Shown here piece after piece: positions 1 to 4,110 of a stretch of 4,478 nucleotides of DNA. Source of the stretch: a virus (lineage: Duplodnaviria > Heunggongvirae > Uroviricota > Caudoviricetes); IMG/VR virus record IMGVR_UViG_2681813227_000017. The stretch is one strand, 5' to 3'. The notes beneath the pieces were generated by a model, which saw nothing but the letters and a program-made list of their open reading frames with translations, was not told where the DNA came from and searched no databases. Within the stretch, counting starts at the first letter, position 1; the number at the start of each line of letters is the position of its first letter. The translations under genes and the position numbers were made by a program.

Positions 1-65
1 TCTGACTAACCTGTATTTCAAAATCAGGGAGGACCGCCGTAAGACGGCGCGGGGAGACTAAAGCG

Positions 66-1055
66 ATGAAGAAAAAATACGAACTGGTTGTTAAAGAGAT
101 AAATAATTACCCGGATAAGATTGCTGTTACTGTGGCACTTGAAATTGGCGGGCATCCGTCGTTGTTGTTGCCACATGTGGCGATTAGTCTTGACCGTACT
201 GAAGGTGCCACGCTGGAGTTCTACGAAGCTGAGGCGAAAAAACAGGCGAAGCAGTTTTTCATGGATATTGTTGCCGGGTTATGCGAAGGGGATGAACCGT
301 CACCGGAAAAGCGCCCCGTAATTTTAGATGCGCAGGATGTATTGATAACCTACAAAGGAAAGCTACCGGGAAGAATTACTTGTTCTCTGAAGATGCCGCC
401 GTCAACACTGCGGTCAGAAAAAGATGATGTTGAATCGCGTATTGAAAAACTGGAGTGCTATATCGCTGAATTGAAAAAAAGCACCCCAACAAAAAATGAG
501 GTGCTTGCAGCAGACGAAATGAAAGAAGCTATTCCTGATCGCGCGGCGAATCTAAGCTGCGCTTCATGGTTGAAAGAGCATCTTCAGCAGCCTGAAAAAA
601 AACGCCGCGATGAGCAGTTTGCTGCGTTTTACGATTATTGCCGGAAAGTGATGAGCAGAAATCTCGCAGAGTGTTTCAGTATTCATAATGATAATTTCAG
701 TGACCTGGAATGGGAGTGTAACCGGCCATCCTTTGTTGTATCCGGTGATGCTGGGAAAATAACCATCTCAGAAAATGGAAAAGTAACACCGCCATCGCAC
801 CAGCATAGTGAGGAGCTCATTGAATTTGCCATTGATTACCTGAAGAACAATAAAAAGCAGGGGCTGATGAAGTGCATTGGTCGTTGCATGGGATATCTGC
901 AGATAGCTGCTGAGATTGAAGCGCTGGCCAGTGGTGCGGACAAGGATGCAGTTGTGCGGGAGGCTCTTCTTCGTGATTTTGATAATCCGCCCTTTAAAAA
1001 AGTGCCGGCTTACTGGTTTCATCCAGGACTGACTTATCTTAAAGGACGTATATAA
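66..1055 (+). CDS. Hypothetical protein, 329 aa, probably soluble; function unknown. Candidate accessory (moron) gene just upstream of the endolysin.
   Basis: Uninterrupted 990-nt ORF starting at the first in-frame ATG after a stop at 3-5; GGGGAG at 51-56 sits 9 nt upstream as a possible RBS. No N-terminal hydrophobic segment and no motif I recognise (no Walker A, no CxxC pairs). Composition looks more AT-rich than Rz or terminase. Same strand as the lysis genes, 42 nt before the endolysin start. Confidence 0.6.
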   Translation: MKKKYELVVKEINNYPDKIAVTVALEIGGHPSLLLPHVAISLDRTEGATLEFYEAEAKKQAKQFFMDIVAGLCEGDEPSPEKRPVILDAQDVLITYKGKLPGRITCSLKMPPSTLRSEKDDVESRIEKLECYIAELKKSTPTKNEVLAADEMKEAIPDRAANLSCASWLKEHLQQPEKKRRDEQFAAFYDYCRKVMSRNLAECFSIHNDNFSDLEWECNRPSFVVSGDAGKITISENGKVTPPSHQHSEELIEFAIDYLKNNKKQGLMKCIGRCMGYLQIAAEIEALASGADKDAVVREALLRDFDNPPFKKVPAYWFHPGLTYLKGRI

Positions 1056-1097: not shown

Positions 1098-1631
1098 ATG
1101 AACACCAAAATCAAATACGGCCTGTCGGCTGCCGTTCTGGCGCTGATTGCCGCTGGTGCGCCTGCGCCTGACATTCTCGACCAGTTTCTGGATGAAAAGG
1201 AAGGTAACCACACCACGGCATACCGTGATGGTGCGGGGATCTGGACCATCTGCCGTGGTGCCATCATGGTGGATGGTAAACCTGTTGTTCCAGGCATGAA
1301 GTTGTCGAAGGCAAAATGCGCTCAGGTTAACGCCATTGAGCGTAATAAGGCGCTGGCATGGGTGGAGAAAAACATCAAAGTGCCATTGACCGAACCACAG
1401 AAAGCGGGGATTGCGTCATTCTGTCCGTACAACATTGGCCCCGGTAAGTGTTTCCCGTCGACGTTTTATAAACGAATTAATGCAGGCGATCGCAGGGGGG
1501 CGTGTGAGGCGATTCGCTGGTGGATTAAGGACGGTGGCAGAGACTGCCGTATTCGCTCAAACAACTGTTACGGTCAGGTATCCCGTCGCGACCAGGAGAG
1601 TGCGCTGGCGTGCTGGGGAATTGACAGATAA
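1098..1631 (+). CDS. R: SAR-type endolysin (phage lysozyme of the T4-lysozyme / glycoside hydrolase 24 type)
   Basis: The translation has the E-x8-D-x5-T catalytic spacing (EGNHTTAYRDGAGIWT). The N-terminus has a Gly/Ala-rich weakly hydrophobic stretch (YGLSAAVLALIAAGAPAP) followed by Pro, which fits a signal-anchor-release domain better than a cleavable signal peptide. It lies directly upstream of Rz/Rz1. No clear Shine-Dalgarno precedes the ATG. Confidence 0.88.
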   Translation: MNTKIKYGLSAAVLALIAAGAPAPDILDQFLDEKEGNHTTAYRDGAGIWTICRGAIMVDGKPVVPGMKLSKAKCAQVNAIERNKALAWVEKNIKVPLTEPQKAGIASFCPYNIGPGKCFPSTFYKRINAGDRRGACEAIRWWIKDGGRDCRIRSNNCYGQVSRRDQESALACWGIDR

Positions 1632-2397: not shown

Positions 2398-2747
2398 GTT
2401 TTGTTGATGCGCCGTATCGTCGCTGTATTCCCTCATTAACAGAGACCGCAGCCCGACAGGGAGACTCCTCTGCGCGAGTGTGCGGGGATAATCAAAAACG
2501 ATACACACCGGGGTTTACCGCGTTAACGGAGCGCGGCGTTGTCCCCTCATAGTCGCCTGTCCGGTGCGATGGTGGAAGAAGCCGGATGTTTATCACTATT
2601 AATTGATGACACAGAAATGGATTCATTGAATTTCAGCACGTTTTTGTATTCGTGTTATTGAACATCTGTTTATTTTACTTTTAACATATTGATAATAAAA
2701 AGAGCTGTAAATCTTTAGATGAGTCGATTTTGTCCGGGGAAGTTCAA

Positions 2748-2888
2748 ATGGATTTTATGCTGACGGTTTCTGGTGTGGTTATCCTGTCCATTGCTTATAC
2801 TGCAGATAAATATGGCTGCCATTTGTTATCACGTATTGGCGCTTATTGTTCGTTGATGCTGATTTTCTCGTCGCTTTTTTTTGAGTAA
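2748..2888 (+). CDS. Small hydrophobic peptide, 46 aa (MDFMLTVSGVVILSIAYTADKYGCHLLSRIGAYCSLMLIFSSLFFE); candidate small membrane protein
   Basis: Not in the ORF track because it is short. GGGGAAG at 2735-2741 lies about 6 nt upstream of the ATG, with an AT-rich region further upstream. Two hydrophobic segments. A 17-bp AT-rich near-palindrome (2889-2905) follows the stop. The only support is the RBS and hydrophobicity. Confidence 0.3.
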   Translation: MDFMLTVSGVVILSIAYTADKYGCHLLSRIGAYCSLMLIFSSLFFE

Positions 2889-3020
2889 GTTATATTAATT
2901 ATAACAAATAATTTTCTGTGTTATTTTTTCAGGCTATCCCGTCAGAGGGGAAGCCTGTACTGCCGGGGAGCGAATGGAAAACTGATGTGTCCGGTAACTG
3001 CGTGTTCTGTGAACACCATG

Positions 3021-3206
3021 TTACTTAATTATGTAATTCATACCCGAACTCTCTGTTGACAGCCTTCTTCTGCAGGCTTCAATAACCCACGCTGAAAAGT
3101 TTCCTGAACCTTTCAGATCAAGAGCGATGTTAATTTGTTCAATCATCTGGTTTGGAAATCGGATGTTGCGGGTTGTTGTTCTGCGGGTTCTGTTCTTTGA
3201 TGACAT
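3021..3206 (-). CDS. Small ribbon-helix-helix-like DNA-binding protein, 61 aa; resembles DUF3950/YlcI-type proteins found upstream of terminase genes in E. coli prophages (from memory)
   Basis: Minus-strand ORF MSSKNRTRRTTTRNIRFPNQMIEQINIALDLKGSGNFSAWVIEACRRRL..., with a basic N-terminus, a short beta-strand-like segment (NIRFP) and two helices, as in Arc/MetJ/CopG folds. GGGGAA is about 5 nt upstream of the ATG (which is CAT at 3204-3206 on the + strand). It is convergent with the 2748-2888 peptide and divergent from cos/Nu1. Confidence 0.55.
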   Translation of the reverse strand: MSSKNRTRRTTTRNIRFPNQMIEQINIALDLKGSGNFSAWVIEACRRRLSTESSGMNYIIK

Positions 3207-3353
3207 AATGTTTCCCCATATTCAGTGTTGCTGATTTGTATTATCTGAAGTTGCTTTTACGTTAATTTGATGCAGATCAATTAATACGATACCTGCGTCA
3301 TAATTGATTATTTGACGTGGTTTGATGGCGTAGATGCACGTTGTGACATGTAG

Positions 3354-3405: not shown

Positions 3406-3417
3406 GGGCGGCGACCT
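3406..3417. other. cosN: cosN: the 12-nt cohesive-end sequence GGGCGGCGACCT of the lambda type (terminase nicking site)
   Basis: 3400-3450 reads GTTACG|GGGCGGCGACCTCGCGGGTTTTCGCTATTTATGAAAATTTTCCGG, which matches the lambda right-end/left-end junction as I recall it, base for base across about 45 nt after the nick. The flank before it (GGGTCCTTTCCGG, about 3374-3390) resembles the lambda right-end region where cosQ lies. Confidence 0.85.
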
Positions 3418-3443
3418 CGCGGGTTTTCGCTATTTATGAAAAT

Positions 3444-3562
3444 TTTCCGGGAACCATGTCCGGTTTCTCTGCAAGTTAACTACATAAAAAATATAAAAAC
3501 AGGTTTTCCGTGAACCGGACATGCGCAAAAAATAGACATATAAACCGGACATGACCGGTTTT
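3444..3562. promoter_or_regulatory. cosB: cosB-like terminase small-subunit binding region: three copies of a CATGTCCGGTT(T) element (candidate R3, R2, R1) with an A/T-rich spacer that may be an IHF site
   Basis: CATGTCCGGTTT at 3455-3466 in one orientation; its reverse complement GAACCGGACATG at 3512-3523 and AAACCGGACATG at 3542-3553. The one-inverted, two-direct orientation pattern mirrors lambda R3 versus R2/R1. An A/T-rich stretch at 3471-3500 sits between the first and second copies. Identity to lambda ends exactly where lambda R3 would begin. Confidence 0.6.
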
Positions 3563-3600: not shown

Positions 3601-4110
3601 GTGGCTACGCAGACTGAAGTTGCCAGGCATTTGAGTCTGACCGATCGCCAGCTTCGCAGATTGCAGAAATTGCCGGGTGCTCCGGTCTCGAATAAGCGAG
3701 GACAACTGGATCTGGATGCCTGGCGTGATTTTTACATATCGTATCTGAGGAGAAGTAAAAACGATGTGCCTGATGGCGATAGCGAAGACGACTATGAAGA
3801 AAAGTTACTCATTGCCAGATGGAAGTTGATCGAAGAACAGGCAATCGCCCAGCAATTAAAAAATCAGGCGTCCGAAGGAAAGCTTATTGACACCGGATTC
3901 TGTATTTTTGCCCTCAGTAAGCTGGCAATGGCGTTATCCAGTACGCTTGATTCCATCCCTTTATCCATGCAGCGACAGTTTCTTGATTTAACACCGCGCC
4001 ATCTTGACCATCTGAAAACCCTTATTGCGAAGGGGGCAAATCAGTGTGCGCGGGCAGGGGATAAATTACCGGATTTACTCGATGAATATATCAGAGCAAC
4101 AACTGAATAA
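3601..4110 (+). CDS. nu1: Terminase small subunit (Nu1-like)
   Basis: 169 aa starting at GTG 3601, the first start after an in-frame TGA at 3595-3597; GAGG lies at 3590-3593. The C-terminal half matches lambda Nu1 by recall (FCIFALSKLA...LSMQRQF...RHLD...LPDLLDEYI versus lambda FCTFVLSRIA...LSVQRRF...RHVD...IPGLLSEYI). The N-terminus has the helix-turn-helix region in a divergent form. Confidence 0.92.
   Translation: MATQTEVARHLSLTDRQLRRLQKLPGAPVSNKRGQLDLDAWRDFYISYLRRSKNDVPDGDSEDDYEEKLLIARWKLIEEQAIAQQLKNQASEGKLIDTGFCIFALSKLAMALSSTLDSIPLSMQRQFLDLTPRHLDHLKTLIAKGANQCARAGDKLPDLLDEYIRATTE

Follow-up and report, generated by a model that had tools for sequence, protein, structure and literature searches.

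The 329-codon open reading frame (ORF) at positions 66-1055 (plus strand) of the window, by which we mean the whole 4,478-nucleotide stretch of DNA that was analysed, almost certainly represents a long-form member of the YdfR/DUF1327 family and a real late gene. It is an ordinary, already catalogued accessory gene with a putative function, and its family is specific to lambdoid prophages. What is added here is its location inside the lysis cassette and the presence of a distinct, strongly conserved C-terminal domain encoded by codons that the RefSeq annotation omits. Most likely, the product is a cytoplasmic factor that is expressed late and binds a protein of the host. A host-interaction role was among the guesses offered in a first-pass annotation of this DNA, which was made from its letters alone, and it appears to be the best supported of them.

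The ORF was assigned to the YdfR family because of two profile matches and the name that its exact protein carries in databases. Pfam PF07041 (DUF1327) matches aa 1-100 with an E value of 8.5e-39 and 132.1 bits (profile positions 1-88 of 93), where the curated gathering cut-off is 25 bits. PHROG 1085, a family whose function is not named in PHROGs, matches aa 1-329 (E 2.5e-180; profile positions 1-296 of 296). The exact protein is called "YdfR family protein" in nr and UniRef, is also entered as "Phage protein" (UniRef A0A0K4PT01), and is G2583_2458 of O55:H7 CB9615. The gene is therefore not "unrecognised", as the first-pass annotation described it. That annotation had also proposed a match to a characterised family as a test of novelty. 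A named family was indeed found, but the function of this family is still essentially undescribed. All eight PHROG matches are to families of unknown function, and the only published functional work that we found on DUF1327 or ydfR is a single report (PMC13232886). Searches of the lysis-cassette literature yielded nothing on the 329-aa gene.

Further searches covered both sequence and structure. NCBIfam profiles gave nothing meaningful against the 329-aa protein, Pfam scans recovered DUF1327 only, whether run on all alignment members or on the C-terminal domain alone, and searches of PDB by sequence, with the single protein and with a profile, gave nothing below E 0.03. An AF2 model of the protein was built with a diversified alignment. 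The structural-similarity search that had been suggested earlier, conducted with Foldseek against BFVD and PDB, produced nothing at E <= 0.001.

The window covers the end of the late region in a lambdoid prophage of E. coli. It opens with the 3' end of a class II holin gene (S; positions 1-61, plus strand). Frame 2 reads LTNLYFKIREDRRKTARGD followed by a stop, with the holin C-terminus encoded at positions 2-61 and the stop codon at 59-61. This matches the C-terminus of K-12 EssQ (which ends in LTNLYFKIKEDRRKAARGE before its stop), and RefSeq labels the identical DNA "class II holin family protein". The ATG of the 329-aa ORF lies 4 nt beyond the holin stop, and a Shine-Dalgarno GGAG, read from the sequence at 53-56 (plus strand), precedes this ATG by 9 nt and thus falls within the final part of the holin gene. 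After the 329 codons and the stop there is a gap of 42 nt, and the next gene of the cassette encodes lysozyme R (1098-1631, plus strand; PF00959 Phage_lysozyme, E 2.6e-24; phrog_7 endolysin), so that the ORF does sit directly upstream of the endolysin gene, as had been noted. The N-terminal segment of this lysozyme, MNTKIKYGLSAAVLALIAAGAPAP, is weakly hydrophobic (Kyte-Doolittle maximum 1.74), which suggests a putative signal-anchor-release type.

Because the holin C-terminus is encoded at positions 2-61, the 329-aa ORF is part of the lysis cassette and follows the holin gene, rather than lying between the late-operon leader and the lysis genes, where the first-pass annotation had placed it. 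Its comparison with the position of stx also does not apply to this gene. Accessory genes in the stx slot lie upstream of the holin gene, and in Stx2_95, where a 94.5% identical 329-aa gene follows the holin gene, stx2AB is found ~3.2 kb upstream of the latter. The same holin-X-lysozyme order recurs in BP-4795, PhiR5_1, CB9615 and strain D1, and K-12 has the equivalent arrangement essQ-ydfR-rrrQ (class II holin, ydfR, lysozyme). Homologues in other prophages thus occupy the same slot in E. coli (K-12 ydfR, Stx2_95, BP-4795 and PhiR5_1), but those in Salmonella prophages do not. Unlike the window gene, the Salmonella homologues do occupy an stx-type slot, located between the Q antiterminator gene, with toxin-antitoxin accessory genes, and the holin gene.

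Since only 4 nt separate the holin stop from the ATG, the two genes would be co-transcribed, and their translation is probably coupled. No promoter-like site was found on the plus strand in the 65 nt upstream of the ORF, which are occupied by the holin 3' end. Given this short gap and the absence of space for a promoter, expression should come solely from the Q-antiterminated late transcript. This arrangement bears on the possibility that the ORF is a "moron", an accessory gene that aids the lysogen through superinfection exclusion, anti-phage defence or virulence. Its base composition would suit such a gene. The GC content of the ORF is 45.3% (GC3 43.6%), which is below that of the neighbouring genes for lysozyme (53.9%; GC3 59.0%) and Rz (55.3%; GC3 57.7%), and it is lowest in the segment encoding aa 113-216 (43.3%). 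The AT-richness pointed out in the first-pass annotation is therefore evident against the lysis genes, but the ORF is close to the window mean (46.9%) and to Nu1 (47.1%). The family is also extremely mosaic, and the Salmonella homologues, lying in the region between Q and holin, have toxin-antitoxin pairs beside them. However, the 4-nt gap to the holin stop implies late-only expression, no family among the PADLOC-DB 2.0 defence models matched at E <= 1, and K-12 ydfR has almost no reads under standard growth (PMC13232886). A role in exclusion or defence, which had been floated earlier, thus lacks support, and we consider a moron function very unlikely. The description of the ORF as an accessory gene of the lambdoid late region nevertheless stands. 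The gene is non-essential, compositionally distinct and highly mosaic.

The 329-aa ORF is a real, intact gene under purifying selection in both halves. It is counted as real because of its substitution pattern, its full-length homologues in Salmonella and the presence of identical DNA in many E. coli genomes. Values of dN/dS range from 0.27 to 0.56 against four homologues. Comparison with the Stx2_95 copy gives 0.27, that of the head with BP-4795 ORF47 gives 0.29, and that of the C-terminal half with stand-alone copies gives 0.38-0.56. DNA with 100% identity to the first 1100 bases of the window is present in many complete genomes of E. coli, and 491 of 5426 such genomes (~9%) hold >=80% of these bases. 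The exact 329-aa protein is encoded on at least 999 contigs in public collections.

RefSeq/PGAP treats the identical intact ORF differently. In CB9615 and strain D1 it is called a partial pseudogene, "YdfR family protein, incomplete, missing C-terminus", and the call spans only codons 1-112 (L016 7066-7401 in CB9615 and L017 3666-4001 in strain D1, equivalent to window 66-401). Left out are ~650 nt, corresponding to the C-terminal 217 codons, including the most conserved domain of the family. The annotation implies a decaying or accidentally fused gene without function, a view to which the short forms (103-114 aa) could also be taken to point, since these are the ones found most often in sequenced phages. 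We find this interpretation largely refuted and assign it only the slightest probability. There is no interruption in the frame of 329 codons, both halves have dN/dS values below 1, the combination of head and C-terminal domain recurs in Salmonella at 27-30% identity, and the unannotated part holds the most conserved positions of the family.

The protein is soluble and, in agreement with the first-pass annotation, has no membrane segment. Its highest Kyte-Doolittle 19-residue mean is 1.09 and its GRAVY is -0.44, compared with Kyte-Doolittle values of 1.74-2.82 for the lysozyme anchor, the small membrane ORF and Rz. The type member of the family is a single-domain protein of ~100-115 aa, whereas the window protein has 329 aa and an additional conserved C-terminal domain. 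Four segments can be distinguished along its length. The DUF1327 head (aa 1-100; window 66-365, plus strand) has a core of three beta strands and one long helix at aa 1-73, over which AF2 gives pLDDT values of about 70-93. The head is acidic (pI 5.3) and aligns without gaps to K-12 YdfR over aa 1-74, at 41% identity. A helical segment follows at aa 118-140 (DDVESRIEKLECYIAELKK; window 417-485, plus strand), where AF2 places a helix at 122-138 that is probably a coiled coil. Residues E130 and L136 are near-invariant, and this segment aligns with the N-terminus of headless proteins of 185-213 aa, in which it opens the C-terminal module. The third segment is a variable linker (aa 141-216; window 486-713, plus strand) with pLDDT below 50 that contains homologue indels and recombination breakpoints. 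Homologues diverge after aa 112, ~175 and 204/209.

The C-terminal domain (aa 217-329; window 714-1052, plus strand) consists of three short strands, three helices and a near-invariant tail, and AF2 models aa 221-290 with pLDDT block means of 78-89. Among 114 unique sequences, 25 positions in this domain are at least 95% conserved compared with two in the head. Conserved motifs are GRxMGxLQxAAxIE and, in the tail, DFDNPPFK..W..PG..YLK.R, whose invariant residues include F305, P309, F310, K311, W317 and Y324. The near-invariant tail (aa 305-328; window 978-1049) has pLDDT values below 50, and its motif could be a candidate site for binding a partner. The SSB C-terminal tip, DFDDDIPF, is resembled by DFDNPPF, which in the 329-aa protein is internal. 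We also considered an internal duplication, as both the head and the C-terminal domain have three strands and then a helix, but this idea was rejected with an hhalign probability of 0.2%.

The modules of this protein are found in several combinations. Short forms of 103-114 aa carry only the part equivalent to aa 1-112, mid forms carry aa 1-204/209, stand-alone forms of 185-213 aa carry only aa 175-329, and full-length forms have 268-333 aa. Stx2-converting phage 86, like Stx2_95, has a long form. Among 266 cluster representatives, 123 combine the head and the C-terminal domain, 75 have the head only and 54 have the C-terminal domain only. BP-4795 ORF47, a short Stx-phage form of 114 aa, is 87.5% identical over aa 1-112 and occupies the same slot between holin and lysozyme. 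Whereas the short Stx-phage forms stop at about aa 114, the window gene runs 217 codons further. The stand-alone C-module proteins, such as P0092 and the product of the Stx2_12E129_PPompW gene, are 65-94% identical to aa 175-329 and lack the DUF1327 head. Their genes begin 3 nt after the same holin gene and, unlike the window gene, are followed by a convergent 104-aa ORF. In addition, the chimeric protein P0155 has a first ~60 residues near-identical to a 177-aa ORF encoded upstream of the YdfR-family gene in L003 (3292-3825), and its C-terminus is the conserved C-terminal domain. P0155 is further evidence of module shuffling in the region.

A full HMMER scan of 1.84 billion representatives found 74 relatives. 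Profile searches add a large Salmonella enterica clade that the Pfam DUF1327 model misses; its members have the same architecture of head and C-terminal domain and 27-30% full-length identity. A search with the C-domain profile returned E. coli, Shigella and Salmonella proteins only, and a scan of one genome per species yielded three loci. No member of the family was found outside Escherichia, Shigella and Salmonella in the HMMER scan, in searches with the full-length and C-domain profiles, or in the one-genome-per-species scan.

In other prophages the YdfR-family gene is directly followed, or overlapped at its 3' end, by a small convergent ORF from one of two families (L003 4881-5141, L002 3648-3908, L005 4807-5124 and L008 4652-4966, all on the minus strand). 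Each of these ORF families is kept between E. coli and Salmonella, with 32% identity for one and 45% for the other. The idea that a conserved antisense partner forms part of the gene's unit was rejected because tblastn showed both convergent ORF families to be absent from the window. An 84-aa antisense ORF (768-1022, minus strand) lies wholly within the 329-aa gene. It does not resemble the convergent ORFs described above and is probably spurious. Separately, the Salmonella prophage in L005 has, along with its long-form gene, a second, stand-alone DUF1327-like ORF of 80 aa (5294-5536), which matches the head profile with an E value of 1.8e-5 and lies just upstream of the gene for the holin.

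The place of the gene in the cassette raises the question of whether its product might be a soluble, antiholin-like regulator of lysis timing that binds the cytoplasmic tail of the class II holin, or otherwise delays or sharpens triggering. P1 LydB and T4 RIII are small-to-medium soluble antiholins that regulate their holins as soluble factors and are encoded beside the holin gene. Like them, the window protein has no membrane segment and its gene adjoins that for a holin. In E. coli the gene is located between those for holin and lysozyme, 3-4 nt after the holin stop, whichever gene form is present. However, no homology to LydB or RIII was detectable in PHROGs and Pfam, and no lysis-category or antiholin family from either collection matched at E <= 0.1. 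Furthermore, the Salmonella homologues, unlike the genes for LydB and RIII, are not adjacent to the holin gene but are parted from it by a convergent small ORF, and they accompany two holin families (PF04971 and PF16080), which speaks against a partnership with one specific holin. An envelope-integrity screen of K-12 that is cited in PMC13232886 did flag ydfR, but the envelope phenotype of the deletion could be explained by polarity on the lysozyme gene downstream. We therefore judge a role in lysis timing to be unlikely.

The binding of a host protein is suggested by findings for K-12 YdfR (b1555, Qin prophage), a 103-aa protein made up of the head and a short helix. The two proteins have homologous N-terminal domains that both match the family head profile (E 7e-31 for K-12 YdfR), and K-12 YdfR is likewise soluble and late-only in expression. 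The window protein differs in adding a coiled-coil linker and the 113-aa C-terminal domain. In a bacterial two-hybrid experiment with RNase G as bait, a fragment comprising codons 1-72 of K-12 YdfR was recovered three times, and both this fragment and full-length YdfR gave a signal with RNase E 1-597 (PMC13232886). RNase E 1-598 also co-eluted with Strep-YdfR, and nucleic acid that resisted DNase was purified along with YdfR; according to the authors, a contaminant as the RNA binder is not excludable (PMC13232886). Overproduction of YdfR changed few transcripts and left growth unaffected (PMC13232886). These data on RNase E binding concern K-12 YdfR alone, with which the window protein is compared by sequence.

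Because the RNase E-binding fragment of K-12 YdfR corresponds to the head of the window protein, we propose that this head docks onto RNase E. The head would bind the catalytic N-terminal half of the host enzyme, and possibly RNA, and would bring the conserved C-terminal domain, as the working part of the protein, to RNase E. Rather than being a lysis enzyme, the protein would thus modulate host RNA decay, or serve as an adaptor for it, at a late stage of infection. We hold this mechanism, which is drawn from homology to K-12 YdfR, to be possible rather than probable. In its favour, the head and the C-terminal domain stay joined down to 27-30% identity in Salmonella, and the restriction of the family to Escherichia, Shigella and Salmonella is in keeping with the binding of one particular host protein. 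Against it, overproduction of K-12 YdfR had the slight effect on transcripts and the lack of effect on growth noted above, the head is less conserved than the C-terminal domain (2 versus 25 positions), and structural and profile searches provided no biochemical clue. We do not rate the mechanism higher because the binding is that of a 103-aa relative with a head just 41% identical, because a pI of 5.3 is unusual for an RNA binder, and because the C-terminal domain also occurs in headless copies. The function of a domain that is found without any head cannot depend on the head.

In a more novel interpretation, the 113-aa C-terminal domain, which matches no Pfam family and no known structure, could be a new phage effector or interaction module, delivered to the host RNA-decay machinery by interchangeable heads such as DUF1327 and also able to act alone. 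Although we view this as distinctly unlikely, it would, if true, indicate that there are modular lambdoid late proteins that, shortly before lysis, reprogram RNase E or a different conserved hub of enterobacteria.

Several phage proteins, namely T4 Srd, T7 gp0.7 and phiKZ Dip, bind or modify RNase E and reshape mRNA decay during infection. They are possible functional analogues of the window protein by analogy only, as no relationship to them by sequence or fold was found in PHROGs, Pfam, PDB and BFVD. If the link to RNase E holds, the long forms would provide the first known example of lambdoid late-gene products that interact with host RNA decay, with a possible bearing on the stability of late transcripts and thus on the output of Shiga toxin and lysis genes in Stx phages. 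The practical value is small but real, as the gene is present in ~9% of complete E. coli genomes and in Stx-converting phages and is systematically under-annotated.

Beyond the lysozyme gene, the window contains, in order, a small membrane ORF, Rz with a putative embedded Rz1, an AT-rich stretch, cos, Nu1 and the start of the large terminase gene. Between the genes for lysozyme and Rz, inside the late operon, there is a strong hairpin of 14 pairs followed by a T-rich run (1722-1754). In other phages the gap between these two genes carries inserted genes (ant or KilA-N). A sub-threshold match to the Rfam rimP-leader on the minus strand (1698-1787; 29.9 bits versus 47) is probably due to chance. 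The small ORF just before Rz (1791-1928) encodes ~45 aa with one hydrophobic segment and matches phrog_6632, a family of unknown function, with an E value of 1.4e-29; in strain D1 it is labelled "hypothetical protein" by RefSeq. The +1-frame ORF embedded in Rz (2150-2335), which has a lipobox-like LVVSAC and a proline-rich body, is expected to be the Rz1 outer-membrane spanin.

The phage lambda cos sequence (from GGGCGGCGACCT through TTTTCCGG) has an exact match at 3406-3450, upstream of the Nu1 gene (3601-4110). With cos in this position, the packaged genome, like that of lambda, carries the lysis cassette at its right end. The AT-rich stretch between Rz and cos (2600-3350; 33-43% GC) includes a hydrophobic 52-aa ORF (2730-2888) with no family match and a YlcI/YnfO (DUF3950) gene on the minus strand (3021-3206).
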